32,015 bases of DNA from Folioceros fuciformis (Eukaryota): positions 241,200-273,214 of the forward strand of contig JBNGIO010006337.1 in the NCBI GenBank assembly GCA_049999805.1, in the 5' to 3' direction. A program made the position numbers and the translations under genes. The notes under the pieces were generated by a model, which worked only from the letters and a program-made list of their open reading frames with translations, was not told where the DNA came from and searched no databases. Below are positions 3,101-25,375 of this stretch, in pieces (position 1 is the first letter of the stretch; the number at the start of each line of letters is the position of its first letter).

Positions 3101-6100
3101 CAGACTCACCTGCAAGTACGGTGGATGGAACTCCAGGGAAGAGGGCTTCTAGGAGGACAGCCAGTGTCAATGAGGGCTCGTTACAACAGCCTGAGAGTTT
3201 TATGCTGGATGGAAAGGGCATGCAGGTGAGGGCTAGCAAGTAGCTGTCAGCAACATGACACAAGGTCGTCCTCCTGCTGTAGTGTGATTGGATTTTATAC
3301 CCAAATATTGACTGCACTGTGAGAGCTAACCCTGGCAGGTTTGGTGGGCTGGTGCTCAGGGGCTGAAGCGAGGCCGGACAAGGGGGCTGGCTGATACTGC
3401 CGCAAAATTTGCTCGAAAGGGTTCTATGGAGGATGTGTCTGCTGTTTTTGAAGCTGCCTCCGACAATGCTCTTAGAACTACAGCTGATGTTTATCAATCA
3501 AGTATGGGTGGAGGCACGCCAAGACCTCCAGTCAGTCAAGCTGGTACACCCTGGGATTGGGCAGATGCCGATGGAGGCATTGGCATGGACATGCAAAATG
3601 ATGCTGACATGTTAGCTGAATTTGGAGACTTTGGAGACTTTTTTGAGGATGATGGTCTGGGTTTTGGCGAGGTTGGTATTTGTCATATTGTTGCGTTTCT
3701 CTTATCGTTAATTTTTTTTGTTATGGAACCACGTGTGATTGCCATAGGGTAGAAAATTGGGTAAAGGGGCCGACATAGACTTGTGCATTTTGGCTATGGG
3801 TAATCTGTTACGATGGTAGTGCTGGTGTGAAAATGCATGCAGCAAATCTGTATCGAGTTTCTACTGACAGATCAGTGTGTTCATTGGTGGATGCTCAACA
3901 GCCACCTGGAACAGCAGAATCACAGGCCTTGTTCTCGTTTGGTGACGGTGGAGATGGAGTGAACACGCCTGGAACAGTGTGTCTGGACACCTCAGATCCT
4001 TTGCTGATGCCTCTTTTGGACTTACCCTTCCTTGAACCTCCAAATCAGCACGGTAATAGCAAAGGGTTAACTGGTGAGACACGAGCTTCTTCTGATGGGC
4101 TGACCTCTGTGAAGTCATCAGCTCCAGGTTCGCTCCAGGGTATCGTGAACAACGAGCTGGAGATGGTACCCCGAGCAGAAGCTTCAGTTATGTTCGCTCC
4201 TGAATTTGCTGCTGTGGAGATCCCCGCTGTAAACAAGTCCACTGCTGAAGTATCTCTGTCAAAGCAATCATACCTGCCTGTTGCTGTAAAGGAATTTCTT
4301 CAATCAGGAAAGTCTGATGCCTATGTATATAGTGCAACTCCTCCCCCAACTTCGAGATTTGGTGGCCTAGACAATGGTAGTGAGGTATGGGCACACGGGT
4401 ATTCCAGATTGGGCAACAGTGGGTCACAGGATGTTGCCTGCGCCACGAAAGATGATTCTTCTGGTGCTGAAGGTGGAAACAAACTGCTGCGGACGTGGTG
4501 GCGATCATGTGGACTACCCTCCATGGCTACTACCTTACCAGCAGAAAAGGTTTCTACAGCCAGATTACAGGCCAGGAATACATCGAAGCTTGTGCCTTCA
4601 ACTGTGGAAGTTCAGAGATCCACTGTTGCACAGATTGCAACAGATATGAACTGTGCATTGTTGCAGCTGCAGCTCCATTGTGCGTTACTACTTGATCCTT
4701 CTGGAAGGCCGTTGAATTGTCAGACAGAAGCCCATGCCGCACAGCTATCTTGGAAGAGCCTTGCAGTAAAAGAAGAGGCCTCGGAAGTTACAAACTTGGT
4801 GGACAGTCATTCTGAGAGAAGTTTAACTCGGGCTTCACGGGATAGGAAAAAAAAGGAACGGATTCCATCTAGGATAGTTGGGGATGTGGAAGAGGGTACA
4901 CATGACGAACATCGAGTGGCACAAGTTGGCGTCTGGCGTTCTGTTGGAACTCCAAAATCCCACAAGGGTCTGAATGCAGGAAATTTCCCTAACCATGGTA
5001 TCGGGGTACCAGCTGATCGAAGTGGTATGGGAGGTGAGGAATCGTTTCAAGGTGGCCTTTTGAGGCAAAATCAGATACTGGAGTATGCAGACGCAGTTCC
5101 ACTTTTGGCCCAGCAAGCTGCCGTTCCGGTTGATATTGTCTTAGATGGAGAGTGTGGTGATGGTCCATACCAGTGGCTTGCGTCACGTGAACAGAACAAG
5201 CGTCTTGGATGTTGCGCAAGTGGGATGGTGCACAAGGGATGTGGTGGTATGTTCTCTTTGAGGCATTGGCTCGAAATATCTGGCTTGGAGCTGATTGATC
5301 CTCTTGGGGGAGAGGTAATGCTAAACTCTTCACTGCGGATTCTGTGCTGTAGCACATACTCATAGTGCTACGGCTCTGTAGCTTCATGATGTGTAAGGTC
5401 ATTGTGTCATTACAATGTGGTAGTTAGCTTGCAAAAGCATTGTCCCTGATGAAATTTATGCATTGCGTTGCTTCTGGCTCATGCTTGGCTTTTATGTTCC
5501 TGGAATACTCTCAGGTCAGTCCAGCAATGGCATCTAATGTGCTGCGGAGAGATGTGCGCTGGGCCATGGCCAATTCGTTTGGCAAAACAAATTTCGATGG
5601 ACCTTTGACCATGGCAGAGTGGTGCACTGGCAGAGCTCAGTCATCTGATTGTGGGGAGTTAACTGACAGTATCACTGTAGATTCGAAGGCTAGTGTCATG
5701 CATGTCAGTGCAGAGCACCTGGGCCAACAGCAGAACACTTGTGGACCTCCAGGATCAGTAAAAGGAAACTCTTCCTTTTCCTCTCACTTAAGGATTGATG
5801 ATGGTTGTCACAGGCGCTCTGGGGAAGATTCGAGCCATCAGGTCCTGGGATCCAGTAGAAATTATGATCCAAGTGTTCGTGCGATTGCTCTTCCTGGGGT
5901 TGTTGTGGGGTAAGTTGTAATTTACCATGACTAGTTGCTGCATAGCTCCACACTCTAGCCCGTGGACGAGTAAGATGGTGGAAAACGTGTTGGCTTTTTG
6001 CAGTACTGGTCACATGTGGAGTAACATTTGAGCCCTGCTGTATAAAACTCTCCATTCTTCTTGGCCCATGATGAATCTTCATTTTTTTCCAGGTATCAGG

Positions 6101-8913
6101 ATGATTGGCTTAAAACAAATTTTTCTATGTTGCGTTATTGGGAAAAGGCACCTTTTGAGCCCTTCGCAGTCTCAAAACCTGTGAGTTCACCGAGTGTATA
6201 GAAATATTGATCTACTGAGAAGACTGTTAGTTGAAGGTGTTGATTGACACTGCATCTGTTGTTGTAGGTTCTTTATCACGTGGTGTGCCTGGGATTGGAG
6301 TCTCTCCTTTCAGCAGCAAGTTCTTTTTTCAGTCAGCTGAGTTCAGGTCAGAGATCGAAGTCCGGATTGAAGCTTGATCAGTTTGTAAGCGCTAGTAGTC
6401 TATTTCTGATATCATTTGTATGTTGCAGTGTATGAAATCTGCGGGCTTGGGTCACACCTTCCAGCTGGTGGAGGATCTAGTCCGGCAAGTATGGGGAAGA
6501 TGCCAGCAGGTTTCAGGGTGGTTGATGTGCCTGGCACTGCGAAAGGAGTTCAAAACCCGCTAAGCCTTCCTGGTGACTATGTTGCATGTATGGACAAGTG
6601 GTGGAATATGCTGGAATTTCGAAAAGCGTTTCGAGATGTGTGCAAAAGTATACCTGTAGCAGGGAATACTACTGCCTCACAGAGAGATCCTGAAACGATC
6701 CCTTCAACTGTATTGTCCCAAGAGTTCCTTTTCCTTTTTCTGTGCAATCTGATTGTTGGTTATGTGCTTTGCTGACTGAAAGGATCTTTGCAGGTTGTGT
6801 ATGTGGTTTGCCCGACCTCGGAGCCTGTTGATGTACTTCAGATGATTGTAGATAGTTGCCAGGTTATTGGGTCCTCTCTTAGAATTTCTGAAGGTGGTGA
6901 TAAAGGCACAGCTGGGGGTGGGCAAGGTTCAGCTGTGCCGATCGAAGAGGCAGCAGCTTCCCCAATAGTTGCATGTTCAATAAATCGATTTGCTCTGCAA
7001 GTGGTAACAGCAGATGTCCTTCTTAAGATCAGTGGACATGTTTCCTGCAATCCAGAGATCCTAAAGGACATTGCGTTTGAAGTTTACAATAAAGCTCGAC
7101 GTTTACCTCGACGATGTGCTGCATCTGAACCGGTTCTCAGTGCTGCTTCTAGGATCAGACCAGGGAGTTCAGTTGTTATGCAGCCTGGCGTTGCTATGCC
7201 TGGGATGTGGAAGGATTGCAACACAAACAGAACCAGCATTTCAAGAGATATTGCTCTTGAGAATTCTCTGCTCCGAAGCTGGGAAAGTCCATGGCCATCT
7301 TCAAGAGTGGACTCTGGTAATGAAATATTTTCAGCCACTGTCCAGACGGGGAGCAGTCGCCACCCTCGCTACTTGTATGAACCAGTTTTTGTCCTCGCGG
7401 ATGCTGCCAGTGAGTCGGCAAGTTTTGACCTGCAGTCCAATCGTCTGGTAGTAAAAGACAATGAGAAAAGTATTACTGGTCCAAGTCAACTACTGGCTGC
7501 CAGTATGTCTGAACCTGGCACAAACATTCCTTGTGAAGTGTCAGAGACGGATTTATTAGCTGCCGGGCCTGATCTTCATTGTTGTTATGTATGGGCTGAA
7601 GACTGGCAATGGTTAGTCTCTGTATGGACAGATGCACGTGGTGAGCTTTTAGATATTCACGTGTGGCCCATAGCTGGAGTAGGAGGAACCTCACTTCAAG
7701 CAATTTTCTTCGAAGTACTGCATCAAGGTCTCCTCCTGTTGCAGTCTGCAGTTGATGCTGGAAGCAAGAAGAGTAGAAATGTCATAATTTCTCGGCTGGG
7801 AGGCTTTTCTGAGGTGGAGAACCATGGTATGTGTCATTCAGGTTGGTGTTGCTTCTCTTGCTGCCTTCCTGCACTCGATGTCTCATTTGGTGTGTAAACT
7901 GTGACGGGTCCTTGCAGATTGGCAACGGGTGCTAGTTGGTGTTGGAATCGTCGGGAAGAATTGGGATCTCCAGATCAGGCAGTCTGGCCCCGATGATGTA
8001 AATTGTTCTTCAGATAGGGTATTGGGATCAGTGGCCAGCCCAGCATCTCCCAGTATTTCTATGCTGAGGAAAGGTTCCTCCAATTTCGGGATTAGTGATT
8101 TGAACTCCAAGAAGTTGACTCTTCCACCGCAGTTCAATTTTGAAGCAGTCAGGGGAGCGTTGCATTGTGTCCAAAGCATCACCCTAGTTTCTGTACGTCT
8201 GGAACACAGCTTGCAAGTCATGTGCTGCAGCGAGTTTCAACCGTCCGCAGGTTTGGTTCAGTCTCTGGCAGTGAACTTAGTTCTAATCCAGACGTGTGTA
8301 GATCCCTGGACCATAACTTGTGTAACTTGTGGGTGCAGGGCCGCCAGCTACTATTGGTATCCAGCCTGTAACATCCCTAGCAGCACATAAGGCAGCGATG
8401 CTCTTTGTTCCGACGCATAGTATACGATTCTTGTCATCTCCTTATCTATTACGAGGAGGGGCCGGCGATATCCCACCTCTTGGACAGCTTGTGGTTCAAA
8501 ACAACAGAATTGCTCAGCCGTTGGCTTCAGCTTTTGTAGTTACTCCCCAACCGTCAACTCTCGTAATAGGGGATTGGCCTTCCACTCTCTTGGTAGGATT
8601 GATAGCCTCATTCAGTGTATCAAGCACTGGTGCTATGCAACAGGACCTTACAGCAAGAACCGGTTTGATGTCGGAAGGAACTGCGGGCAGAAGGAATAAC
8701 AAGGCTTGTCCTGCAGATGGTAAAGATACCTTACTTGAGGCAAGGAAAGTGTTGGAAGTGGTCGCCCCTCAGTTGCAGGCACTGTCATGGTTAAGTGCTA
8801 GTCCAATGTTTCTGAAGCGACGATCACCTTTGCCCTTCCATTGTGATATAGCTCAAAAACTGAGCAGACTTCTCTCCTTTATGGTGGCTGACGCAGCCCC
8901 TCCGCCAGGATGA
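121..8913 (+). CDS. MED13: Mediator of RNA polymerase II transcription subunit 13 (CDK8 module; GCT/MAB2-like), multi-exon
   Basis: Exon 1 (121-144) MITNVFRL|GTAAG; exon 2 from 387 GGFQLVSWFELRP. Together these match the plant MED13 N-terminus (MWTNVFRIGGLHNVSWFQ). Later conserved blocks: VKLWLF, YVRFGDVF, VAPHG..GRLTGCCPS, EVYIFPAEAVL, a Ser-rich tract followed by ADADS, EFGDFGDFFEDD, PPGTAESQAL, GYQDDWLKT..WEKAPFEP (~6093), LYEPVFVLA, LHCCYVWAEDWQWLVSVWTDARGELLD and RRSPLPFHCD. Stop TGA at 8911-8913. Not all internal exon boundaries were resolved. Confidence 0.95.
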
Positions 8914-9122: not shown

Positions 9123-11437
9123 TTAATTTTTCTGTGGCGTGTGTAGGCGTCTACCTACGAGAGCGATGGGACGAAGTGGAAAACAAAAGCTCCTGCTACA
9201 GTTGGCTCTCCATTGTTCANNNNNNNNNNNNNNNNNNNNNNNNNNNNNNNNNNNNNNNNNNNNNNNNNNNNNNNNNNNNNNNNNNNNNNNNNNNNNNNNN
9301 NNNNNNNNNNNNNNNNNNNGTACTGAGTCTCTGTCTCTCATCAGCCACTACAAAACATGAGTGTCGGGTTAGCTGCCTGCTGGAGGGAAGGACAGCAAGA
9401 CCACGGAAGTCCCTTGGAGACTTGTTACCTTCATGCGTTTGATCTCGTCATTGATTCGGAGCTTGCTATCCTGCAGGAAGCACCAACACTATCACTAAAG
9501 TCTCCATGTCCTAATCCCCACCTGGCAAAAGGTCGCGTGACGTGCTTCAAGCTTTATGGGCTCAGGTCATCGGGGATGCTTGAGACGCAGACATGGGTTT
9601 GTTGAAGGACTTCACCTGATATGCCTTGGAATTAAGCAGACGGTCATCTTTAGCAGGTGATTGAACCCCTTTCATAATAAACGGCGGCTTCGGCGTCACT
9701 GCTCGCTGGGGTGTCTGCGGCCTTTGCGGGGTTGATGCCCGCGCCGGCTTTGGCGCACTAGCTCGTTTGGGTTCGGGCTCGTGTTCTTGCTGGGGCTTAT
9801 GCTTATTACTGTCTGGTGCGGGGAGTGTTCTGGGTCGCACGTCAACGGGCTCACATCTAAGGCGGTGTCGTGACACAGTCTCCGTCTGCACATCCAAAAC
9901 CCTAGTGTAGGTTAGTGCGCTGCAGAAGGAGGCTCTTAACATGGAGAGCCGGAAGAAAGACATTGAAGGCCTGACCTCCTGCCGTTTCAGCCTCTTCGAC
10001 TCTCCAAGATCCTGCATGGATCAACCCATGCAAGCAGCAATCCTAAAGGCATTAGACAACAAATTGTTCTCATGTGATGTTTGCTGCTCCTCGACTAGTA
10101 TGGAAGAAACAGCTTGGGGTGCAAAGAGCAGAGAAAAAGCCTGGGCACTCCTACTGCAGGTCTTTAACAGCGTACAATGGCTGGTACCTGTTACATTTAT
10201 GTACAATCTCAAACTTTTTGTGTTATGGATGGTGAAGAAACCTACTTTTACGTATTGTTCCGCTAGATTCGTGGCTTGTTTAAGCTTTTCTGATTTCTCA
10301 GCAAGTGACCGTTTAATCTCATCCATTTCCCTGGACGTTTGCAAGAGAGTGAGCCATAATGAGGTAGGACGGAATTTGACGAAATTTCAACAACGGGAAA
10401 CACTGGTACGATCACTCGACAAGGATGTGGAAGAGAACGAACCTCCGGAGAGATTCCAACTGCCTGTCAGCAGCTTCTTGAATTTTTTGTTCTCTTTCCT
10501 TCGATGCCTTCAGTAATTCTTCTTCTCTGTCTTTGGCGCGATCGCCAAGCTTTCTCTCCCTGTCTTCAATATCCCTTTCCAGTTTCTTCCTGAAGACCTC
10601 GAATTGCTTATCTCGTTCTTTCGCGGTCAGTAACAATTCCCTTTCCCGTTCGTCTGCTTTCTGGTTTGATGCCGGCATTCCATACAATACAGCAAGTCAC
10701 TGGAAAATTGACTCTGACGGGCAAGGCTAGAGAGCAATCAGATAATGTCAGAATCTGTACCAGTTTGAAATTTTGGAACTCAAGGAGACACGCTTTTTGA
10801 ATAGCTTCATGTTGCTTCGAGAGGGTCTACACACCAGCTCATTGCATCAGCGGAAGCCCTCTTCACCTTGTTTTTGAGTTGGAAACCGAGCACCGAAAGC
10901 ATAACAAAACGCCAGTCACCTCAAGTGCCTCCTTGTTGGATATCTCCACACGCTTGGCAATGGTAGCCTCCTTGAAGGCTTTTATCTTTGCAGCGGTCTC
11001 CCTAAGAATCATTTCTATCTCTCCATCATTTTTCACCAGAATGTTCTGTCACAAACGACGATGGTACTGAGTTTCCTTGGAAGAGTCACATGTAGTGTTG
11101 GATGAGGTGTAGCAGCTCGGTGTGGATTTTCACGGATTGGTCCAGTGCAGGTGCTTATCCCGCAAGACCATATTCCATCCATTAGACCTCTTGCTAGCCT
11201 TTCCAATACTTAAACACAAAAGACCGACGTGTCATCACTGGGGAATTACTGCCTCCTGCGCGGCAAATGACGGTCAACCTGATAGGGCAGATCAGGGTAC
11301 AAGTTGGAAGTAGATTGCGCTGCAAAATGGTGCATGAGCCGATTCAGCTGTGTGAGCTTCATCTCAATCTTTTGGTCCACTTCCGTGCAATTGTCCGGGT
11401 CAACCCCCGCGGCGGGGGTTCTAGGCTCCTGGTCCAT
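9123..11437 (-). CDS. Uncharacterised multi-exon coiled-coil protein with Pro/basic low-complexity region; 3' end uncertain because it spans the gap
   Basis: ATG at 11437 (MDQEPRTPAAG...EVDQKIEMKLTQLNRLM). GT-AG-bounded exons in compatible phases: NILVKNDGEIEMILRETAAKIKAFKEATIAKRVEISNKEALE; TLSKQHEAIQKACLLEFQNFKL; KADERERELLLTAKERDKQFEVFRKKLERDIEDRERKL...; EMDEIKRSLAEKSEKLKQ; DLGESKRLKRQE; the Pro-rich TPQRPQTPQRAVTPKPP exon; DSKLRINDEIKRMK (9429-9470); WLMRDRDSV running into the gap. Possible terminal exon RRLHTPQKN* ending at 9123. The junction after the first exon was not resolved. Confidence 0.7.
9220..9319. other. Assembly gap (100 N)
   Basis: Run of N; falls within the probable 3' part of the minus-strand coiled-coil gene. 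Confidence 0.99.
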
Positions 11438-11823
11438 CACCAACTCCGAGTATGATACCCGGAGTGAAGGCACGTCACACTGCTGCTCGGACGGTCGCCA
11501 GAATTGGAAGGCCAAGAGGAGAACAGGAAGGGCATATTATCTAGGGTTAGTTTTGTTCTTTTGGCTAACCGGGGCAAATGTCATATACAATTCTTGGGTT
11601 ACCTGTTCCCTTTCCTGTGGCATTGCTATCCATACTGTTTGTAAGTTTCAGTTGATCAGAAGTGAATGATCTAGACATGGATAAGGAGGATGGCGTTGAA
11701 GAATGCATCGGATTCTGCTGGGTTTGTGTATCCATGTTTGAATCTCTTGAAGCCCAGCCTTAAGATCTTACGTTTCCGAGCCTCGTAGCTCAGCACATTG
11801 CTGTTTGTCTCCCCAGCGGATCA

Positions 11824-14800
11824 ATGGCTTCAGGAGCCAGCTGCGGTGCCATTCAGTGGCATCTTTCAGCTCCTCCTGGTGTGCTTGACGGAACTGGATG
11901 GTCTGCCACGAGGGCGGTGTCGCAGCAAGAGAGGGCGGTGCCAGTTGTTCGAGGGCAGCATGAGGATGGCTTGACGCTGAGGGCTGGGTGCGGTGCTGCG
12001 CCTGCCTCTTTGCAGAAGTGCATGTTGAATCTGAGAAACTGGGGAAGGAAACATCGCGGAAAAAATCTGCATGTCAATCTGTCTTTACGCAGCACCTCCC
12101 AGTTGTGTAGCAGGGCTTTCTGGTCCCGAAATGCTTTGAGAGCAGGAACAGCACTTTCAAGAGGGGATTTCCGACCACGACAATCTAGTCAGTTGTATTC
12201 TGTTTCGACTCCTCAAGCAGAAAGTGCAGACGTTGCTTTGCAGGAATACCTTGAACTAGTTGCCGCAGCAATGGGCATACAAGACTACGGCTCCGACGAG
12301 CACATGATCCTCACTGGTCTGATAACATGGGTGTGATTGTTTTTTTTTTTTTTTTTTTTTTTCATTTCACGCACGACGGTATCTCCTGGACAGGTGCTGA
12401 AGAGTCTGGCCTTCGTTTTGACAGGAAAGCAATTGACTTGGGGAATGGAAGGTGCGTGGACCATGACTTGGTGCATGGATGGCAGATTTCATGAAAAGTT
12501 TGAGAGCGAGGATTTTACGCATGAGTGGGCATACGATGGCATCCAGGCCTGGTATGCCGATGCAGGCGGTCGAGTGCAGAAGCAGGAACTTGACGGCCAT
12601 GAGGTTAGTCTCAACAATCTCTCTCAAACCCCTAAGCTTCTGTTGAGACACAAGTGGTCTGAACACCTGTGTCCCTATGCTTGGGTTCCCTTCCAACTAT
12701 GGTAAACGGATCACTGGTGTTCTTTGTGTTTGAAAGGTATGTCTGCTAGTTTCATGGAGTCGGATGGGTTACTGGGTAACAGAGGATGCTCGAAAGCGAT
12801 TGGAGATTCAGCTGGTGTCAGGAGAATCAGTCAAGGCGGTAGATTCAGAATTGGTGCTGTCTCTAAGGATGAAAAATAAGAAGGTATGCTTACCGTGATA
12901 TTTTCATTGCTGAATCAGAGTTTCAGGCATTGCAGCTCGAGCAATGCGCAATCTCTGTCCTTGAGGATCCGCTCTGGGACATTTTTGTAGGTGGTTGTAT
13001 TGATGGTAATTGACAAGGGCAGCTGGCTGCCTTCACGAATGACATTACAAGCGTTTGGAGGGAGTGAAAGGTGGAGTTTCTCGGCATGGCAAAACATTTT
13101 GGTGTGTCCACGAGACTGTTGTATATCTGAACAGTAGCTAGGTGGACCATATAGTGATGACCTTCAATGTGGTTCTGCTAATCATTTCCTGACGTGGTAC
13201 TATTGAAAGGACTGAGTTCTATCCAATATGCAGCCAGATCGCAGCTGCAAGCTTCCAACCTCGGGCATACATTTTCCACCTGCCGGAAGAGAAGAAACGT
13301 TTGACGTAGTAAAGGTTGAAGCGGTAAAGGGAAAGAGCTTTGCAAAAACTGGATTTCGGTATTCATATCCTGCGTCCTTGGTGGTTCCACGATACAACCC
13401 TCGATATCCGTGTTCTGGGATAGATAGCTCGTGCTCCAGTTCTATCCGGGTAATCTTGAGTTCCGTTTGTCCCTTTCATCAGGTGAACTTTCCATGACCC
13501 GTAGCTTTGCCCTAACCTTAGTGTTGGCGCAGATGAGAAGCGCCGACTCTGGCCACTTCCTTGTGCAACCTTTGGTTAATGGGAAGTCGATTGGGTACGT
13601 TGTTGTTAGGGACGCAACTTTTCTGCTGCATGGCCTGCATTACTGTCTTACTGCTGAGCGTATGAACGCTTTTTTCGTATAGGTCATTTATCGTAGATAC
13701 TGGGGCAAGTAACTTGGCCATCTCTTCGAAAAAGGTAAACTTCCTGTACATCTTTCATAGTTGCCGGGCTCTGACCGCAATTCTGTCGTAACTTCCTTTC
13801 GTGCTCACTGTTGCCAGGCAGAGGAATTAAATATGGCCAGATTTGGTGAGGTGTATGTCAGTGGTGTGTCTGGGGCGGTGAGTTTGACCTTGCTGGACCG
13901 GCATATTGTGTCTTTTGAGACCTCCTGCAAGCATAACTGGAGTCTTCGCTGCACAGGGTAAAAGTCAATATGCTCGTGGTAAAACATTCAAGCTTGGACC
14001 CTTCAGTATGACGGATCCTGCTTTTCTGGAGGTATATTTGTGGTCAATTGATGTTTCCATATGCAAAAATATTCTCCTGCAGTGCGACTTTGGATCCATC
14101 GTCCATGTTTGTTGTCTCGTCATTATGCATCAATCAAATCTGATGGCCAGTACAGAACATTTACGACAAGCTGATTTTTGTCTCTTTCAATGAAATTGAA
14201 GCTTCCGATAGACGAACTAGTACCGGGAGTGGTGGGTATATGTGGCTACGACGTATTCCTGGGATGCATCGTTGAGATGTCGGTTAAGAACCGTACATTA
14301 TCGTTGTTTGACCCGTTGGAGTACGAAGCTTCACAAGCTAGACAAAAGCTACACTGGCAGGTCTCTTTCTGAGTCAAGCAGTTTGGTCTTGTGAATAGGA
14401 TGCGGATCCTTTGCAGTAGCCACACGTAACCACTGAAACGTTTCAATCCTCTCATCTGTGTGTGCAGAAAATGTTCCTGATTGAGGGCGTACCTCATGCT
14501 GCTGCCAGGATCAACGGTCAGGAAGTTCTGTTGCTCATAGATACAGGCGCAGGGGGGACTGACTTGATGCTTTACAGCGAAGCTGCCAAGCAATTTAACT
14601 TGAGCAAGACAGGGGTCATTCACATCAAGGGGATTAATGCAGTAGGCATGCAGGTATCCCTTTTATGTCCTCCTCGTTTTGGCCTCTGTATCCACGGTCT
14701 GCAGATCACGTGTCCCTAATTGACGGGTTGGGTTGCAGGTTCCTGTCACAGTGGTAGATGTTCTGGAGTTGGCAGGACACACTTTCAGAAAAGTGACGAC

Positions 14801-14951
14801 CTATGCCATTGATGAAAGGGATAAGATGTTTGTATGCTCGCAGTATTGCGCGGGCATGCTTGGTGGGAGGATACTACAAAACTTTCTTATGGTATTCGAC
14901 TACTCCAAGGGCCGTATGGCTCTGGTTGATGAAAGGACCACCAAAAGTTGA
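11824..14951 (+). CDS. Aspartyl protease family protein with two tandem retropepsin-like (bacterial-type, clan AA) domains and a probable N-terminal organellar transit peptide; ~12 exons
   Basis: Spliced product contains GHFLVQPLVNGKSIG|SFIVDTGASNLAIS (Asp codon 13696), VVGICGYDVF, GVPHAAARINGQEVLLLIDTGAGG (Asp codon 14540) and GMLGGRILQNFLMVFDYSKGRMAL. That is two DTGA plus hydrophobic-hydrophobic-Gly motif pairs. Exons join in phase at GT-AG sites (e.g. introns 12317-12424 and 14654-14738). The N-terminal ~130 aa is rich in Ser/Arg/Ala and poor in acidic residues. Confidence 0.85.
12340..12362 (+). repeat. Poly(T) mononucleotide run in intron 1 of the protease gene
   Basis: About 23 consecutive T. 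Confidence 0.95.
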
Positions 14952-15670
14952 AAAGCAGCAGTTCTTTGCGATGCCATGCCGGTATAGCGGCCGAGCGCGG
15001 TGTTCTTAAGAATTGTTTGAACACCATTCCAGTTCTTGAGCCTCACCCTGGTCCATCCTCGACGTCCAGTTTCGTTACCCAGGATATAAAGAACGTCGCA
15101 CATTATGGACAGGGAGGCATAGTATAGACAAAGTCGCACATTATAAACAAGGTGGCACAATATAGACAAAGCGAAGGATTTTGGGCTCCGCCTCCAACCA
15201 TACAAACAGAAGCCTGCATATGCCTGCACGTAAACCAAACTGCCTCCAGTGAGCCAGAATGAGGAAGGACCTCTTCGATTGTCGTCGAACTGGAAGCTTC
15301 CCTTGTAGTCGAAGGCCAGAGCACATGCTTGCGCGCTCCAATCTGCCCCACACCCACATCTTCTCAGGAACATGCATCATTCCTCCACTGGAATGGCAAA
15401 TGTATAACGAGCTGGGTGCGAACACCAAGGTCGTTATACATGAAGATAAGGCCGGTTCCAACCTCGTGAAAAATTCATTATAAGTGCTCCGGACCAACTC
15501 TTCGACCTCAGAAGTAAAGCCGTAGTCCACGCAAAAGTTTTGAGGCTCTCTCCAAGATCAAAATTATGTACATGCTCCGTGTACTGATCCATGCTGCCGG
15601 GAGATAGTCCAGTTGACACATCATTCAGCAGCTTGTGATGGAGAACACCAGTTTGGAACACTTGCTCACA

Positions 15671-17857
15671 CTAGCTGCCAATGCGGCACTTCATCTCCTG
15701 AAAGACCCTGGATGCATCATTCAGTCTGCTGGCTTTCTCGTACACACTGACCATCGTTAAGTAGAGGTCCTTCTCGGAGACACCCCCCTGAACTTTCAAC
15801 TTCTCGAACGCTCTCTCAGCGGCCTTGATCTCACCCGCACTGCCGTACATTTGCATCATCTTCCAATGCACTTCATCGTAGAAGATTACTCCCTCGTTCT
15901 GTAAGTCCAGGTAAAACTTCTCAGCTTCAGCCAAAAGCCGAAGTTGCCCATAGGCTGTTAAGAGAAGAAGACATGTCTCGGAGTCTGGAAGAATCCTTTT
16001 CTCCTTCATCCTGTCATACACTTTGATAGCATGTGTGCCCCTTTTGGCCCTAACAAACAGAGCAATCATAGCCTTATATACTGATGCATCCTTCACGTCT
16101 CCAGTTGCATCAGCTCTCCAGAACAGTCGGGCCGCTTCCTCTGTCTTTCCAGCCTTGGCAAGGACATTAATTGCTGTGTCTCGTGATGCGCTGCTAGGCA
16201 GCTTGAGCTCATGCAACAACCGCTTGGCGTGCCCCATCAGACCAGCTTTTTCATACACAACCACCATGGACTGATACAGAATCTCGTCCATCGGAAAGCC
16301 CTTTGCTCGAAGCGCTTGGAATAAGTTTGCTGCTTTTTGAAACTTTCCTGCTTTCCCATATATGGATATCAAGGTCGAGTAAGTCACAGCATCTGGTGGA
16401 ACCCCACGCTCCTCCATTTCGATGATCAATTTCGCAGCTTTCTCATGCTCATGTGTGACACCATATAGCCTGATCATTGTGTTGTACGTAATGACCGTCG
16501 GACGAACATCTTTCTTTTGCATCAACCGGAACAGGTAGATGGCATCTGAGAAGGCTTGAAACTCTGTATACACCTTGATCATTATGTTGAAGGTGACGAC
16601 ATTGGGGAACAAGCCCTTGTCCGTCAATCCCCAAAACAAATCTTCGGCTTCTCTTAGCAGTCCCAATCTCCCGAAGATATCAATCATCAAATTGCAGGTT
16701 TTCAGGTCCAGGTGACAGCCTTTGGCCTTCATTTCTCGGAACACCTCCTGAGCCTCAAACAGCTTGTCAGACTCTGCGTACGCATCAATCAGAGTGCTGT
16801 AGCTCACTGTGTCGGGGGAGAGACCCGCGGCCCTCATTTCCGCCAGCAACCCCTCAGCCTCTCTAAACAAGTTTGCCTTGCCAAACATGTTAATCATCGT
16901 GTTGAACACTACCCTATCGGGTTTGATCCCAGAGGCCTTCAATTTGGAGAAAAGCGAAACAGCCCGAATGTAATCCTTCGACCTCCCCGCAAGATCGATG
17001 AGAGTACTAAATATGACAAGGTCTGGTGGGACACCCTTTTCCTGCATCACGTGGAACCAACCCAAAGCCGACTCAAACTTGCCAGCCTTTCCAAAGGCGC
17101 TGATGATAGTTGCATAAGTGAACTTGTCCGGCGTGACACCTCTTCTGGTCATCTCAGCCACTAGGCCCTCCCCCAGTGCCCACTGCCCGGCCTTGAGCAC
17201 GTTCCTCAACACAATGTTGTAAGCATAGATGGACGGACGAACGTCCCCCTTCTCCATCATCCAGTCATGTAGAGCAAGCGACCGCTGCCAATCGCTCTCC
17301 TTGCTCAGCAGAGACATCATAAGTCTGTACGAGATTCTCCCCTTCCACTCCACCATAACATCCTCCAATTCCCGCGCATTACCTGTCTCCTTCAGAGAAC
17401 CCAGAATGTCGTCGATGTTCACCAGATGGTCCGGCTGGGCAGCCTCTCCCTGAGAAAGCAGCATCTGCCCCATCCGAGACCCGGTTGACACCGCATTGCT
17501 CAAGGACGAGCATCTGGACAAGCTGTACTTCCATTTCCGCGAGGGAAGCTGAACCAAACCCAACTTCTCCGTAATCCCGGAGTGCATAGGCAACACTCTT
17601 CCATGACCATGACAGTCCTTGGAGTTCCCAGAAGCAAGACGCGTGAAGCAGGTGGCCTGACCGAGCAGAACGGACCTGGGAAAGCAGGACACCTTCACGC
17701 CCGCCCCACTGTCCAAATACCGTTCATTCACTCGCGTCTGACGCAGCCTGCGAAAGCGCGTCCGCCATGGAGCCACCGGTAGCTGCACAGTCGACAGAGC
17801 GGCTCCCGGCAGGCGAGCAGAGCAGGAATGGGGACAGGTGCAGGGAACCTGCTCCAT
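15671..17857 (-). CDS. PDM3: P-class pentatricopeptide repeat protein, chloroplastic; At5g39980/PDM3-like; intronless, 728 aa
   Basis: Tandem 35-aa repeats (YNIVL..., PDKFTYATII..., PDTVSYSTLI..., PNVVTFNIMI...). Diagnostic segments shared with At5g39980 as I recall it: SLLS..DWQRSLAL.DW, KTCN.MID..G, EHEKA..L..EM, GLMGHAKRLLHELKLP, LAKAG.TEEA, DEVH..M, LNDASRV. Ser/Arg-rich transit-like N-terminus. An in-frame stop lies 12 codons upstream of the ATG. Confidence 0.9.
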   Translation of the reverse strand: MEQVPCTCPHSCSARLPGAALSTVQLPVAPWRTRFRRLRQTRVNERYLDSGAGVKVSCFPRSVLLGQATCFTRLASGNSKDCHGHGRVLPMHSGITEKLGLVQLPSRKWKYSLSRCSSLSNAVSTGSRMGQMLLSQGEAAQPDHLVNIDDILGSLKETGNARELEDVMVEWKGRISYRLMMSLLSKESDWQRSLALHDWMMEKGDVRPSIYAYNIVLRNVLKAGQWALGEGLVAEMTRRGVTPDKFTYATIISAFGKAGKFESALGWFHVMQEKGVPPDLVIFSTLIDLAGRSKDYIRAVSLFSKLKASGIKPDRVVFNTMINMFGKANLFREAEGLLAEMRAAGLSPDTVSYSTLIDAYAESDKLFEAQEVFREMKAKGCHLDLKTCNLMIDIFGRLGLLREAEDLFWGLTDKGLFPNVVTFNIMIKVYTEFQAFSDAIYLFRLMQKKDVRPTVITYNTMIRLYGVTHEHEKAAKLIIEMEERGVPPDAVTYSTLISIYGKAGKFQKAANLFQALRAKGFPMDEILYQSMVVVYEKAGLMGHAKRLLHELKLPSSASRDTAINVLAKAGKTEEAARLFWRADATGDVKDASVYKAMIALFVRAKRGTHAIKVYDRMKEKRILPDSETCLLLLTAYGQLRLLAEAEKFYLDLQNEGVIFYDEVHWKMMQMYGSAGEIKAAERAFEKLKVQGGVSEKDLYLTMVSVYEKASRLNDASRVFQEMKCRIGS

Positions 17858-18280
17858 GGCTCCACAATCAGTGTCTTCTCCACCTTCTGGCTACGAGCAT
17901 TTTGACGCATGGCAGCGGGAGCAGCAAAGGGAATGGCGGACCCAAGCTCTCCGGTACACAGCTGGCGCAGGCATTGCGGACCTGAGCCCCTCTGGAGGCT
18001 GTGAACTGCTAAGCATTATCCCATACTGCGGCCCGAGGCAATGGCCAGCAGAACATGAGCTCCTCCGTACCTTGCGTGAGCTGAACCTCAAGTTGGTCTG
18101 GCATGGAGGCCACGGACCCCACGCCACGGCAAACGGCCATCTCGCAAGGCAGTTATGGACGATCTCGCAGGGACCCATTCCATCCAACAGCTGAGATGAA
18201 GTGGCAGGTGGGTGTCCCGATTCTCGAGGATCAACCACCGGTTCTCCAAGTCTGGAAATCATGAAGCTTGCTTTACAGAG

Positions 18281-18310: not shown

Positions 18311-18393
18311 AGCGGGTTTCGATTTTTGAGGACGCTGTGTACGTAGTTGGTGGAGAGGATCGATCGGTGGAATTCTCCGGTCTGGTCAGCAGC

Positions 18394-21300
18394 ATGACCA
18401 TGTAAGTGCACCTCCTTGCTTCTTCTTGGAACGGGTGAAGGAGCATAGGAGTGATTGTGGAGTTCGGGTTTGCAGAGGAGATGCCGACCCCGACACTTTG
18501 CGCGTGCTGATTTCCACGGATACGCACCTTGGATTTATGGAGAAAGATGAGATCCGAGGGAGCGATTCATTCAATGCGTTCGATGAGATTTGTTCGATAG
18601 CTATTGAGCAGCAGGTGATCAGGGATTATACAGGATGGCTGCAGCTGGCACTTCCAAGTTTTTCATCAGCAGTACTGAAGTGCAGCTGGCTGCCTATCTC
18701 TGAACAGGTGGATTTCGTGCTCTTTGGTGGGGATTTGTTTCATGAGAACAAGCCTTCGCGGTCGACTTTGGTCAGGACAATTGAAATTCTGCGCCGATAC
18801 TGCCTTAGTGACCGGCCAGTGCAATTTGAGGTCGTCAGTGATCAAAGTGTGAACTTCCCTAACAAGTAAGAACTTCCTCGCTCGAGGACGGACGGGTTGA
18901 ATGGCATCACTAAGGTTGCAAGCTGTGGATTGCCTTCAGATGATGTGGTGTCTTGTTCTCCAGGTTTGGCCTCGTGAACTATGAGGATCCCAACTTCAAA
19001 GTGGGCCTGCCTGTATTTATCATTCACGGAAATCACGATGATCCTGCAGGAGTGGTACGTTTGCCCTGAGACCAGCAGGCCGGCCCTATGCAAACTTCGG
19101 CGTGCAATTCTGACTGTGGTCACGCGAGTCTTTCCTTGCAGGACAACCTTTCGTCTCTCGACATTCTATCTGCATCAAATCTTCTAAACTACTTTGGAAA
19201 AGTCGGACTTAGTGGGTCTGGCGTCGGTCAAATCACCCTTCATCCTATCCTCATACGCAAGGTTGCTTGCATACCTCGTATGAAGGACTTGTGAGATGGC
19301 CCTGTGTGTTTGATGCCTCAGAAAATTCATGTGGCTTCGCCTGGGTCGTTGCTGTCAGGGAGCTACAAATGTTGCACTCTATGGGCTTGGAAACATTCGA
19401 GACGAGCGACTGAACCGCATGTTTCAGGTGTGTAGTCCACAAAATTGTCTCCAGGAACATGGTGAACCGTTTTTTAGCTCGTTTCTGAGCACGGCTTCGT
19501 TGCCCAGACACCTCATGCAGTGGAGTGGATCCGTCCAGAAAAGCAAGAAGACTCGGACTGGTTCAACATATTTGTTCTGCATCAAAACAGGTATTGTGGA
19601 ACAATTACTGTCGTTCCCTTCTATGTGTCCTGTCCCACATGAACTGAGACGTCTTGGTTAAACTGTGACTTGCAGGGTAAAAAGTAACCCGAAGAATGCC
19701 ATCAATGAGAGTTTCCTTGCGGGATTCTTGGACTTCGTGATTTGGGGTCATGAGCACGAGTGCCTTGTAGAACCTCAGGTAATGCGTCTTGCATTTTCGA
19801 ATGCCTTGGTTGCAGGATTGATGTGACACAGAGCTTCTTGCAGGAAGTTGCTGGTATGGGTTTCCACATCACGCAGCCCGGGTCATCTGTTGCAACAGCC
19901 TTAACGGATGGTGAAGCGAAACCAAAGCATGTTCTGCTTGTAGAAATAAAGGTGTGTCCTGGCTGTTGGAGTGTGTCTGCACTAGTATGTTAAGTGCGAC
20001 TATCCGTTTGGAGGAGATTCGTAAACGGATTTTCACAGCTCCCATTTTCGTGCAGGGGAATCAATATCGACCTACCAAGATTCCATTGCAGTCAGTTAGA
20101 CCTTTTGAGTTTACAGAGGTGAGGCGAACTTCCGTTGGGCTCCTTCTGCAACAGTGACAGCCGTCTTTTCCCTTTGCTATCTGCCTTCTGAGTGCCTGGG
20201 GGGTCGGCTCTGGAGCAGGTGTCATTGAAGGATGATCCAGATCTTGATCCAAATGATCCTGTCCAAGTTGCTGAATTTCTTGGGAACGTGGTGAACTGCT
20301 GTACACTGAAGCCCCTATCGTTCTCTTGTGGTAGTTTAGGGAATTCGTTCGTATCGAATGTAAGACTTGTGGTATACCAGGTTCAAGAATCTATAGCTCG
20401 GGCCAGTGCGAAGGTTGTGAAGACGGAGCTAATGATGCCACTTGTGCGAATCAAGGCAGGATTCCTTTTTGTTCTCCTGCTTTTTCATCGAGTCTGGTGG
20501 AAGAACGTTAAATGGCCGTAATATTCTTAACGCTGTGCCCGTCTCTCCTTGCAGGTAGATTATACAGGATATTCAACCATAAATCCCCAAAGATTTGGCC
20601 AAAAGTTTGTGGGTAAGGTATGTTCCTTCTGACATGCTGTTTTCTTGCAGTAATCAAAAGAAGGGCTCATGTCGGATATTTTTTTACATTGTGGAAACAG
20701 GTTGCGAATCCGCATGATATTTTGTTGTTTACAAAACAAGCCAAGAAGCGCCAAACTGTCCAAGGTCGGGGCTTGCTCTCTTATTCCATCGAGTGTTGTG
20801 GTGCTTTCTTGTTTAACCAGAAGCTATCTATGTCTAGAGTATGACCTCGGCTGAAACTGTAGGCTACTGGACAGATTTTGTTCCAGAAACCAGTCTTCGT
20901 AGCTGTCCAATGTAAGAGTTTGACGTACATGCTTGGGTGCCACAGAAAAGCAAGATAAGGAGATGCTGCCTCCAGAGGAATTGAACCAGCAAAATATTGA
21001 AGCTTTGTTGGCTGAGAGCAATTTGGTAATCAATGTGTTGACCATGACGTTCACATTCTATGTCGAGACCAACGAATTTCACTGTTTTTCTCTCATTCTG
21101 AGCATTGCTTCCTCCGTTTTCTCATGTTGCTGACTTGTTGTAGCCTGGTTAAACTGTTGCAGAAGATGGAGATTCTTCCAGTAAATGATCTGGCTATGGC
21201 ACTGCACGATTTTGTCAACAAAGATGACAAGCAGGCATTCGTTTCTTGTGTTCAGCAAACTCTTGAAGACACTCGGGTGAGTAAGTGTTCCCTCTGCCGT

Positions 21301-22584
21301 GTGAAATTTGTGGACAGGAGACATCCAACGGGCTGGCACTGTCGTGTTCATTGTCCAGACCAAGCTTGTTGAAGACGGATCGCAGGATCTTCTTGAGGAA
21401 CCAAATCTTGTTGCCAAAATCAGTGAGCACATGGTGGTAAGTACATGCCCTGCAATTGTTTCCACCTTTTTTTTGAAACGTAATATCGGTGCGGACTCAA
21501 GTAGACGTTCCTCTGCACGTATGAGAGTTCAGCGTCGGGAAGCCGATCGAGAAGCTAGAAAAATTACAGGCGCCGGGCCATCTACTTCAGGGCGCACTGA
21601 AGCATCAGCTGGTCGACAGGTAGCATTCCAGCGGCTAACTATTTAGAATTTGTATCAGCTCTTGTTACTTGCGTGACCTGATCGTCTGGCACGCAGACAG
21701 CAGCAGGCCGAGGCAGATCCGCAAGAAGCTCACAGCTAACTGCAGACGACGACGATGACGACTTTGGAGCGGATCCAACCCCAGCGCCTTCTGCCCCTGG
21801 CAGAGGCAGAAGGCCGTCATCAAGGGGAGTGGCTGCGACTCTCCGAGGCAGGGGACGAGGAGGACGAGCCTCGAAGCAGACAACCCTGGACTTCGCTCCT
21901 CGAGCTCGCCCTTCTCAAAGGTAGTTCAATTACAATTTGAGCACAGAAGCCAGCTGCTGAAACTGATGCACTCTGTACCATCTCTCTGTTCCGGACCAGG
22001 GCTGCATCCGCCGCAGCTAGATCAGCAATGCAGGAACTGAGCGACGACGAGCATGGGGACGAAGGTGCCAGCGATGACGACGAGGCGCTGAAGGACGTGG
22101 AGCAAGTGGAGGACAGCGAGGAAGTACGTGCATTGTGGTGAGTCAGGATAATCCATATCCTGTTCTTTGCTGACATGTGCTGGTGTGACATCTTCAGGAG
22201 ATACCGGAAAGCCCTAAGGCTTCGAGAGGGAAGAAAAGAGCTGCGCCGGCGAGAGGCAGAGGCCGGGGATCCTCAGCTTCAACTCCAGNNNNNNNNNNNN
22301 NNNNNNNNNNNNNNNNNNNNNNNNNNNNNNNNNNNNNNNNNNNNNNNNNNNNNNNNNNNNNNNNNNNNNNNNNNNNNNNNNNNNNNNNGCGCGGAGCAGC
22401 TACATCGACGACGATGTAGACGAGGACGACGAGGACGCCCCGCCCGCCGCGTCTAAGGTAACATGTCCCATCCGATCTTTGCGCCGGCAGCACCTTCCAC
22501 TGATGGCAACGCTCTTCTCACGACGAGGGGTGCAATGGTTAACAGGTGCCAGCGCGGAGAAACTGGGGCTCCATTCGAAAGTAG
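18394..22584 (+). CDS. MRE11: Double-strand break repair nuclease MRE11, multi-exon
   Basis: 8-nt first coding exon ATGACCAT|GTAAG, then [97 protein letters not shown], a Gly/Arg-rich GAR-like segment (RGRGRGGR) and an acidic tail. Last exon 22546-22584 [12 protein letters not shown]. The gap at 22289-22388 interrupts the 3' part. Confidence 0.97.
20456..20554 (+). other. GC-AG intron in MRE11
   Basis: The conserved [21 protein letters not shown] junction only forms with donor AAG|GCAGGA at 20456 and acceptor TTGCAG at 20554. Confidence 0.85.
22289..22388. other. Assembly gap (100 N) within the MRE11 3' region
   Basis: Run of N. Confidence 0.99.
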
Positions 22585-23455: not shown

Positions 23456-24952
23456 ATGGCCGCCATTGGTTGTAACGCTCCTGTGTGGATGCAACATGGA
23501 TTTCACATAAGGGGAGAGCATGGTCGTGACCCATACAGTGAAACAAAATCAGTGCCATCTGCTTATGCTTCCGAAAGACTCGAAAACGTAGGGGTCAAGG
23601 CAACCAATTGTGCACAGCGGTCCACTACCAGGCTTCAGGAGGCTTATTCCACTCGAGAAGCAAGACTGGATGAGGAATTATGGGTGCGTCTTGTGCCTGC
23701 TCCATCGGGCTCACTACTACAAAAAATAATTTGCTCACCTCCTTAACACCATGGGCCATGTGATTGTAGGCGGCGGCGTGGCTGAGAGCGGAGGGTTACC
23801 TTGAAGATAATCCGTATGGACGGTGTGCACGTGTCCATTGGTTTACCGGCTTCCATTGCCACACTTTTTGCTGTTGCTTCTAGCAAGGTGGCACTTGTCA
23901 GCACAGCTAAACGTACAATCTTGTCATCCTGACAGGTATATGGAAAGTCAGAGGAGGAAATTTGCTGAGCAGGTGAGGCTAATGTCTTTGCTTACTGGCG
24001 ACAATGCAGCTTGTGGACGCGGCAGAGCACCCGATCTTGATCCATTGCATGGACTGCTTGGGCAGGAGTTTGGAGCCTTGAAGAGGCGCCTATCAGGCAG
24101 AGTCGGTCAGTCCATCAAATGCATCTGCTTCATTGCTGTAAGTTAGGAAAGTCCTGGCTGGCCCCCGCTGAGTCCCATTTAGGGATCTTGGTACGAAGGG
24201 GGGTGGCAAGAGTCACCCACCCTTCTGATGCAGCACCAGGTTGCTGACCACAACGGGGCCTCCAACCGCAGATTGTGGACAGGGGCAACGACGTCAGTGA
24301 CCTACACAGGAATGTGGACCCCATGGTGGATACCGTCATTGGCACTCTAGACATAAGCTGCCGTCAAGTTGTGCCAGGTGAGGTGAGTTTTACGGTACGC
24401 GGATGGCCAAAAGCACCCTCGTTCGCACCGTGTTCAACATCGAAAGCAACTGACTGGCCATCCGAACCCAGGGACTCAAGGGGCCTGGCTTGCAGGTTTC
24501 TGAAATGCTGGGGCTCCACAGATATGCCTACATCTCCAATGTATGTGTCTCAAAAATGGCCCGTCGCAATGGCGTAGCGTCCAAGCTATTGCAAGATGCA
24601 GCCCGAGTGGCCGAGGGGTGGGGTGAGTGTCACCACTTCCCACAGCTTTCCCCTCACTTCTGCCGGTGCAATGCTCCAACGCCTTGCCGGCGTCCGCTGA
24701 CAGGTTTGAGTGAGATCTACGTCCACGTCCTGCCAACAAATGTGGCTGCCCAGAATTTGTACTCAAAGCATGACTTTCATGTAAGTATATCCCACCTTTG
24801 GTGATGAGGTGAGTCTAGGTTGTATCATCTCCTGGGTTTTGTCCTCACAACAGTTCTGTTGCTAATTCTCAGCATTTGCTGGTCAGATTGTACAAGCACC
24901 CCTGTCTGAACTCAAAGCTAGCCAACCTGTACTGCTTTGCTGGAATATCTGA
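23456..24952 (+). CDS. GNAT6: GCN5-related N-acetyltransferase, plastid GNAT6 (At2g06025)-like, multi-exon; true start may lie further upstream
   Basis: Spliced: REARLDEELW|AAAWLRAE..R|YMESQRRKFAEQ|EFGALKRR..CICFIA|..VIGTLDIS..|RYAYISNVCVSKMARRNGVAS (acetyl-CoA motif RxxGxA)|GLSEIYVHV..N..AQNLY.K..F|IVQ...WNI*. Stop at 24950-24952. An acceptor at 23445 just before the ATG suggests an upstream exon. Confidence 0.88.
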
Positions 24953-25375
24953 TCCTTAAGTCAGGTGCCCAGTTCAAGACATGGAGAATTCGTTCCTTCT
25001 TTGTGGCGCTCGAGTCACTGGGCTCACTCACCTTTTTTTTTTTTTCTTGTAAATTATCACCTTTTTGTTGTGAACATTTTGTGAGCATTGGGGAGTTCGT
25101 AATGGTGCGGTCGTCACCGCGTTGTTAATAAACGTCGTTAACACTCGTCACTCATAGCATTGGTTTGGACAACTTCCAACGTTCCGAGGAAATTTCTGAA
25201 TTGAAAGTGTGTATCGCACGGGGCGTGATTGTGAAGCTTGCGCGGCACGCGGGAGTTGGACTGTTGCGCGAGTCAAATTCCTTGCGCCGGAATGAAACTA
25301 GTTGGTGTTTTTTGCAGATCGGGGAGCGGCTTGAACTGAATTGTGCGCAAGCGGCAGGGAAGGGATCGGCGAGTG

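Follow-up and report, generated by a model that had tools for sequence, protein, structure and literature searches.

A putative organellar aspartic protease of green plants combining a LolA-like domain with two retropepsin-like lobes of bacterial origin

A 32,015-nucleotide stretch of the Folioceros fuciformis genome (assembly GCA_049999805.1, contig JBNGIO010006337.1, positions 241,200 to 273,214 of the forward strand; hereafter the window) contains at 11824 to 14951 a gene that raises three questions: what kind of protease it encodes, from where green plants obtained it, and in which compartment its product would act. An initial annotation, made from the letters of the window, had described it as an intron-rich gene for a probably organelle-targeted protease with two fused bacterial-type retropepsin domains. 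Our analysis points to a three-part protein, composed of a basic leader, a LolA/LolB-like domain and two aspartic-protease lobes, in a green-plant family whose bacterial origin is supported by sequence comparison. The best explanation, to which we give a probability of about 0.5, joins this origin and this architecture to a role as an organellar protease; gating by lipid is its weakest part.

The gene consists of 12 exons separated by GT-AG introns and has a single open frame of 650 residues from the ATG at 11824 to the stop codon ending at 14951. It is spliced in RNA-like contigs from all four public runs mapped, which belong to four studies, and the predicted gene of about 12 exons was thereby borne out. 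The run label 'RNA?' is a guess and no RNA record exists for any matching run; the runs are read as RNA because spliced joints are present. Run X1 has no difference from the window across the 8 pieces listed and shows 9 of the 11 exon joints among the rows listed; introns 6 and 7 lie outside those rows, and the X1 contig holds 248 letters between exons 5 and 10, equal to the expectation from the gene model. Runs X2, X6 and X11, from two other organisms and three other studies, are about 92-98% alike per listed exon piece and have the same gene structure as X1, with gap-free listed pieces for exons 1-11; the 12 insertions or deletions listed, of 31, are all 3' of the stop codon. An intron 1 placed at 12331-12393 from the sequence was ruled out by the RNA-like contigs, which place it at 12317-12424. 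Exons 2 and 11 have one match each in the 87-Mb genome; the copy number is based on these two exon searches, which diverged paralogues may escape. The transcribed parts are as follows.

11641..11823, plus strand: 5' untranslated region to the limit of the X1 contig
11824..12316, plus strand: exon 1, residues 1-164, encoding the leader and helix 1 of the LolA-like domain (contigs, gene model)
12425..12603, plus strand: exon 2, residues 165-224, best conserved in relatives among the exons listed, where 4 of 183 letters differ (contigs)
12737..12883, plus strand: exon 3, residues 225-273 (contigs, gene model)
12991..13101, plus strand: exon 4, residues 274-310 (contigs, gene model)
13234..13449, plus strand: exon 5, residues 311-382 (contigs, gene model)
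13533..13594, plus strand: exon 6, residues 383-402 (contigs, gene model)
13683..13734, plus strand: exon 7, residues 403-420, with Asp408 at 13696-13698 (both joints deduced from the exon 5-10 spacing)
13818..13877, plus strand: exon 8, residues 421-440, first half of flap 1 (contigs, homologue model)
13957..14031, plus strand: exon 9, residues 441-465 (contigs, gene model)
14202..14360, plus strand: exon 10, residues 466-518, lobe-1 psi-loop motif at 14235-14246 (contigs, alignment)
14468..14653, plus strand: exon 11, residues 519-580, Asp543 at 14540-14542, Pfam Asp_protease_2 E 1.4e-4 (contigs, Pfam)
14739..14951, plus strand: exon 12, residues 581-650 and stop codon, lobe-2 psi-loop motif at 14853-14864 (contigs, alignment)

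The transcribed segment 11641-11823 includes five upstream ATGs that open frames of 2-32 codons, two of them in frame with the main ATG and stopped ahead of it; translational control is possible.

What does the frame encode? The protein is divided into the following parts.

11824..12231, plus strand: N-terminal leader, residues 1-136, with a net charge of +10 and without a hydrophobic core; putative transit peptide judged from composition
12232..13389, plus strand: LolA/LolB-like domain, about residues 137-362, exons 1-5 (boundaries transferred from the P0047 model)
13423..14321, plus strand: protease lobe 1, about residues 374-505, exons 5-10 (Pfam, P0047 model)
14355..14927, plus strand: protease lobe 2, about residues 517-643, exons 10-12 (Pfam, P0047 model)

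The LolA/LolB-like domain of about 225 residues between the leader and the first lobe had been overlooked in the initial annotation. The protein folded, with an alignment of 27 rows as input, was P0047, a liverwort homologue 42-43% identical to the window protein; its model has a predicted local distance difference test score of 77, a predicted template modelling score of 0.78 and a disordered leader. P0047 residues 354-634 matched 9iy9 of Bacteroides fragilis (Z 23.0, 270 residues aligned, root-mean-square deviation (rmsd) 2.9), which was also ranked 1 by Foldseek, and the two-lobe part also matched pepsins (Z 16.1-16.8, 238-248 residues aligned), Rv0977 (Z 16.0) and the covalent HIV-1 protease dimer 3ka2 (Z 14.4, 194 of 203 residues aligned, rmsd 3.1). 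Because both halves of two-lobed structures are matched, the model supports one shared site, and the suggestion that two lobes in one chain could form such a site thus agrees with the predicted fold. In the model and the alignment, each lobe has a Gly-containing hairpin, which we take to be at the retropepsin flap position. P0047 residues 111-342 matched 3bk5 (Z 15.8, 203 residues aligned, rmsd 3.8), 4z48 (Z 14.2) and 3buu (Z 12.6). The model of a bacterial homologue, P0041, has the LolA-like and two-lobed folds as in P0047 plus a PDZ domain, and its LolA/LolB match has Z 16.8 with 202 residues aligned and rmsd 3.8.

The Pfam family Asp_protease_2 (PF13650) was matched at 42-61 bits, against a gathering cut-off of 24.3, in all five full-length plant homologues scanned, in accordance with the initial assignment of the lobes. 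In a Pfam scan of 11 exon pieces of the window (exon 7, being too short, was omitted), 10 had no match, and exon 11 alone gave 22.9 bits to PF13650, slightly under the cut-off. No Lol family, in Pfam or NCBIfam, was matched in the green proteins scanned. The exclusion of an A1 pepsin, Ddi1 or a retroelement also stood: there was no match to a pepsin family or to PF09668, and the gene has 12 exons and three parts.

The catalytic motifs of the window protein are D408 (13696-13698) and G-I-C-G (14235-14246) in lobe 1, and D543 (14540-14542) and G-M-L-G (14853-14864) in lobe 2. None of the 27 aligned green sequences departs from the two catalytic Asp residues or from the Gly that closes each motif, and every one has Thr or Ser in the middle position at both sites, so that hydrophobic-hydrophobic-Asp-Thr/Ser-Gly is found at both sites in 27/27. 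The lobe-1 psi-loop Gly is likewise invariant (27/27), and the window protein has the psi-loop hydrophobic-hydrophobic-Gly in both lobes. Flap 1 has no invariant Tyr; Tyr occurs in 12/27 sequences at position 433, presumably the equivalent of pepsin Tyr75. The protein is probably an active protease.

From where did green plants obtain the gene? The scan of bacteria gave at least 12 loci among the matches listed, seven of them from Vulcanimicrobiota/Eremiobacterota, at 22-30% identity. The green and bacterial profiles matched with a probability of 99.8 over 482 columns, and the profile of the N-terminal domain matched three PDZ-bearing proteins (probability 93, score 51 versus at most 16.7 in 30 column shuffles). 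Full-length close relatives were found in 2 of 151 genomes of the phylum of L003, Armatimonadota (E 1.8e-92 and 2.5e-85), both of which belong to one class, represented by 8 genomes. Of 201 genomes in the L011 phylum, Acidobacteriota, 14 had matches at 1e-25 or better, seven of which were strong and long. The relatives in these two phyla are three-part proteins, mostly with a signal-peptide-like start, and a hydrophobic core was found in 8/9 bacterial starts. Since the tandem lobes and the LolA-like domain occur together in bacteria, the architecture came whole from there and no fusion took place in plants; two lobes in one chain, as initially described, were thus confirmed, and their fusion in plants was not. 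In trees with 21 bacterial rows and with 16 rows that include the closest bacterial relatives, all green sequences group in a single clade (100/99 in both), with branching near plant order. L002, from a genome flagged as unpublished, supplies one of the 9 rows of alignment A4 and one of the 21 bacterial rows; no claim is made on L002 alone. With the profile match, the full-length relatives and the single green clade, the proposed bacterial origin of the family is supported.

Outside these groups, the 201 genomes of the Verrucomicrobiota phylum gave only 2 matches, both weak and partial. Plasmid records had no match to exon 11 or P0047, and with a bacterial homologue as query 33 plasmid records gave partial matches only, none covering 80% of the query. 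Among viral contigs, none of 31 pattern hits was confirmed as a relative. No common gene neighbourhood was found around the 12 listed bacterial loci, for which 38 proteins were scanned (34 open reading frames, about half of the 65 listed, and 4 homologues). In L038 and L039, from the two Armatimonadota-phylum genomes, the close homologue lies among bacterial genes directly behind a gene for an acetyl-xylan-esterase-like alpha/beta hydrolase, which is complete in L039 and partial in L038. At the Vulcanimicrobiota loci L004:420-5267 and L006:2182-5397, the bacterial gene is present in two or three copies side by side, and in P0008 (1181 residues) the whole unit is repeated in one chain.

How far does the family extend in green plants? 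Exon 11, used as query in an index-free search, had 16 matches, namely ten family members, two bacterial aspartyl proteases and four repeat proteins. The repeat proteins (P0002, P0012, P0013 and P0016) were dropped; in BLAST against the full model three of them were not matched, and P0016 was matched at E 0.003 only. A word-index search with exon 11 found no match in 355 candidates, which is weak evidence, as the index-free search gave 16. Two further searches for family members gave 16 and 12 matches. Members were named from a liverwort (Calypogeia), from the lycophytes Selaginella (two genes) and Diphasiastrum, from the ferns Pteridium, Ceratopteris (two) and Adiantum (three in A. capillus-veneris) and, among gymnosperms, from Ginkgo, Cryptomeria and Welwitschia; one labelled Mesen1 is, we presume, from the streptophyte alga Mesotaenium. 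All names of these records are hypothetical, uncharacterised or bare identifiers. Homologues aligned over at least 200 residues are 33-46% identical to the window model. For Chlorophyta there are two leads: an Atlas cluster (score 0.96) whose commonest phylum, known for 6 members, is Chlorophyta, and the intron-rich metagenome locus L035 with 65% G+C, in which all three parts are present.

The initial annotation had suggested that the gene may have been retained in seed-free plants or algae. The family is not restricted to these, because gymnosperms have the gene. In agreement with the expected lack of an angiosperm counterpart, three homologue searches, which fall short of a survey of genomes, returned no named angiosperm protein. 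With the Ginkgo query (6892 candidates), matches extended as far as an algal protein of 29% identity, and the four unnamed ones group with gymnosperms or Adiantum (100/100). The gene was probably lost in flowering plants.

Among 57 homologues there are 12 internal deletions of at least 15 residues, and all 12 start at most 2 residues from a window intron; in 6/12 both ends are at most 1 residue from window introns (a single end would do so by chance with a probability of 0.15, and isoforms from the same gene do not count as independent). Several introns of the window gene are therefore shared with gymnosperm and lycophyte genes. At L024:1686-1898, a bryophyte-like family transcript keeps one intron, which ends at the position of window intron 9. 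The window gene is sister to a fern clade (99/100). We infer that the gene was inherited vertically in green plants and duplicated in ferns.

In which compartment would the protein act? Of the 27 green rows, 21 have a leader of at least 35 residues. These leaders are poorer in Asp and Glu than the mature part (4.8% versus 11.6%) and richer in Ser, Arg and Ala, and their net charge is positive in 21/21. A hydropathy of 1.9 is reached by 3/21 green leaders versus 8/9 bacterial starts. The leader of the window protein (136 residues) has 17% Ser and Thr, 10% Arg and 5% Asp and Glu, and its maximum 12-residue hydropathy is 0.81, that is, it is no signal peptide. Import into an organelle is likely from this composition, and in our judgement a plastid is a more likely destination than a mitochondrion; the window leader itself looks only moderately like a transit peptide. 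In the fern paralogue groups P0026/P0028/P0031 and P0032-P0037, the second flap is altered and the first D-T-G is followed by Thr. The leaders of one fern paralogue group resemble what we take to be mitochondrial presequences, which hints at possible retargeting after duplication.

These results may be put together as follows. An exported bacterial protein with a signal peptide, a LolA-like domain and two retropepsin-like lobes would have been taken whole and become an ancient nuclear gene of green plants, and its signal peptide would have been replaced by a transit peptide, so that the protein is imported. The two lobes are predicted, from the model of a homologue of about 43% identity, to be arranged as in a pepsin or in a retroviral dimer with tethered subunits. 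Asp408 and Asp543 would then share a single site, covered by two flaps, and dimerisation would not be required. The product would be a monomeric aspartic endopeptidase acting inside the organelle. Its LolA-like domain may hold an acyl chain or a hydrophobic segment and so select or gate substrates that are linked to lipids or associated with membranes, in quality control or limited cleavage; the chance that the domain binds lipids or hydrophobic segments is about even. RseB/MucB, LolA-fold proteins that control proteolysis, offer an analogy. An undescribed class of lipid-gated aspartic protease, of which this protein would be the founding member, is a bolder proposal: the LolA-like pocket would capture an acylated or hydrophobic substrate and feed it to the self-contained two-Asp site; the class would descend from one lateral transfer from an Armatimonadota/Acidobacteriota-type bacterium to the green-plant ancestor, and through it the plastids of algae, bryophytes, ferns and gymnosperms would have a proteolytic pathway absent in flowering plants. 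We regard this as less likely than not.

Several points weigh against the organellar protease of bacterial origin. The evidence for the fold comes from the model of a homologue, P0047, and the LolA-like match is at about 10% identity, a shared fold showing no function. The N-terminal domain profile is weak against the six Vulcanimicrobiota-type rows alone (probability 2.7), and no one bacterial group stands out in the tree as sister to the green clade. As for import, the window leader is the longest and has four acidic residues within the first 50, and the plastid-type cleavage motif is not enriched (9/21 leaders versus 6.3 in shuffled ones; 143 of 1000 shuffles as high); the initially predicted import thus agrees with a basic, acid-poor leader, that is, with composition only. 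Both paired motifs of the initial annotation were located where it had placed them, but its second G-x-x-G is atypical, for the last Gly, the lobe-2 psi-loop Gly, is Cys in 25/27 green sequences, Ala in one and Gly only in the window protein. Of the sequence features, this replacement speaks most strongly against normal catalysis in the family.

Other explanations take up these points. The same enzyme may be imported into mitochondria or into both organelles, with fern paralogues perhaps dividing the destinations. From residue 51 to residue 127 the window leader is basic and rich in Arg, a start at the second Met, residue 67, would yield a basic presequence free of acidic residues, and one fern group has the presumably mitochondrial leaders described above; the high Ser content and the Met-Ala start common to many homologues, however, fit what we take to be the pattern of plastid transit peptides, and we consider a mitochondrial or dual destination rather unlikely. 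Less likely still, and about equal to each other, are two further readings. In one, the protein is a pseudo-protease or lipid-handling protein in which the LolA-like domain works and the lobes bind peptides uncut; the Cys in lobe 2, a flap 2 that varies between fern paralogues and the many invariant residues within the LolA-like domain in the 27-row alignment would suit this, but the retention of both Asp, both next Gly and the Thr/Ser in 27/27 sequences, from algae to gymnosperms, speaks for catalysis. In the other, the gene is an endosymbiotic relic of the cyanobacterial ancestor, acting in the intermembrane space of the plastid envelope on envelope- or peptidoglycan-linked targets and lost with the peptidoglycan toolkit. 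The signal-peptide-like starts of the bacterial relatives (8/9 with a hydrophobic core) and the lipoprotein-carrier fold agree with it, and the genome has a transglycosylase domain in three pieces (G000:C6396:144085-144736) and a MurB domain (G000:C6183:224842-225114), which is compatible with a link to plastid peptidoglycan but is no test of it.

The spread of the family, from algae to gymnosperms, also resembles that of the peptidoglycan toolkit (PMC10784329); by the same paper, however, most Chlorophyta, where members of the family seem to exist, lost the peptidoglycan layer, and some angiosperms keep the full toolkit. No cyanobacterium is among the at least 12 listed loci or the 33 plasmid records, and an endosymbiotic origin is disfavoured because no cyanobacterial member was seen, Cyanobacteria, like Alphaproteobacteria and Planctomycetota, not having been searched as genome sets. 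Among 14 controls, PF13650 was not detected in Synechococcus elongatus, and Bacteroides thetaiotaomicron was missed as well. Least probable of all, and already refuted by the evidence above, is a domesticated or decayed retrotransposon protease: PF13650 matches occur at 97 places in the genome, many in long open frames, yet the window gene has eleven introns, several placed as in gymnosperm and lycophyte genes, a single genome match each for exons 2 and 11, a LolA-like domain where gag or reverse transcriptase would be expected, and full-length bacterial relatives with E down to 1e-92. The 97 places are probably proteases of long terminal repeat (LTR) retrotransposons and unrelated to the window gene. 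The organellar protease taken whole from bacteria is the explanation that we prefer.

The neighbouring genes are of other kinds. At 14951-17890 on the minus strand, tail to tail with the protease gene, there is a single-frame P-type PPR gene with a frame of 739 residues (Pfam PPR_2, E 5.6e-92). The X1 contig is unbroken from the last protease exon past 15700, which suggests that the two genes overlap at their 3' ends, although a contig is no proof of one continuous transcript. At about 9560-11460 on the minus strand, head to head with the protease gene, lies a probable multi-exon gene with charged, coiled-coil-like and Pro-rich stretches, four pieces of which were scanned with no Pfam match. 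Further neighbours, all of ordinary kinds, are as follows.

3779-8900: Mediator MED13
18330-22400: metallophosphoesterase with a weak Pfam match, which we take to be MRE11
24454-24800: GNAT acetyltransferase
25340-26065: Got1/Sft2 protein
29400-31720: amino-acid transporter

The catalytic type and both folds are already known; there is no new fold, and homologues exist in public proteomes with Pfam labels. New, as far as the literature found goes, are the combination of folds, the single origin in green plants and the apparent absence from angiosperms: no published description of the family was found in a literature mostly lacking subscription papers, and the searched supplementary files of PMC11906373, a part of that source, gave no hit. 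Catalogues of organellar proteases are mostly based on flowering plants, so a conserved, expressed protease that ranges from algae to conifers, with no angiosperm member found, would be a missing part of them; if the lipid-gated class is real, protease catalogues based on Arabidopsis miss a plastid proteolytic pathway. The family is also the first eukaryotic handle found on the bacterial architecture of a LolA-like domain with tandem retropepsin lobes, for which every named record carries a hypothetical or generic name, and it is amenable to study in Marchantia, Physcomitrium, Ceratopteris or Chlamydomonas.

Among known systems, the bacterial three-part proteins L038, L039 and L056-L062 have the same domain order as the window protein at 24-31% identity to its model, with both D-[TS]-G motifs in most and the lobe-1 G-x-C-G in four; they differ in a signal-peptide-like start instead of a basic leader, in having no introns and in a lobe-2 psi-loop Gly, where seen, instead of Cys. 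The distant bacterial proteins P0040-P0042 differ by an added PDZ domain. Of solved chains, PDB 9IY9, a putative endopeptidase of Bacteroides fragilis termed 'exported protein', was the best match by structure (Z 23.0) and by sequence (E 0.002), and likewise has two aspartic-protease lobes in one chain; its identity is 13%, its approximately 270 aligned residues are the protease part, and other chains matched the LolA-like domain. The literature search turned up no paper that names 9IY9. The LolA/LolB superfamily (3BK5, DUF1329 4Z48, NE2245 3BUU) has the fold of about residues 137-362 (Z 12.6-15.8 on P0047), whereas the green domain is about 10% identical to it and fused to a protease. The C-terminal domain of mycobacterial PE_PGRS16 (Rv0977, PDB 4EHC)/PecA is also a single-chain two-lobed fold (Z 16.0, 230 residues aligned, rmsd 3.2) but is 10% identical, and the PecA model had no match to the five green proteins scanned; in place of the LolA-like domain it presumably has a PE domain.

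The single-lobe retropepsins (HIV-1 protease, APRc, Ddi1, RimB and TIGR02281) share the fold of each lobe (5c9b Z 9.9, 2fmb Z 9.9) and the D-T-G-A motif. TIGR02281 gave 22.6-40.5 bits in 5/5 green proteins, under its cut-off of 57.95. Ddi1 (A28) has one lobe with UBL/UBA domains; the window protein is two-lobed, and no PF09668 or ubiquitin-type family was found in the plant homologues scanned. Retroelement proteases (A2/A11) have one lobe in an intronless gag-pol, whereas here a 12-exon mRNA encodes a leader, a LolA-like domain and two lobes. In Chlamydomonas, Cre16.g668050 is listed in Table S1 of PMC8643629 as the one 'bacterial'-type clan AA aspartyl protease with no Arabidopsis homologue, filed under A1 and unnamed in the main text, and is a candidate orthologue. 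Pepsins of MEROPS family A1 likewise have two lobes with one Asp each (Z 16-17 on the P0047 model), and the available text of PMC9937552 and PMC8643629 reports two plant A1 proteases, NANA and chlapsin, in chloroplasts. The family differs from A1 pepsins in having no signal peptide, two Gly-containing flap hairpins and the extra LolA-like domain; no pepsin Pfam family was matched in 5 plant homologues (E up to 0.1), and no pepsin was among the 5 solved sequences matched (E up to 1). Retroviral proteases are homodimers of one lobe, according to the available part of PMC11957791. Structurally, the family stands between such homodimeric retropepsins and the pepsins.

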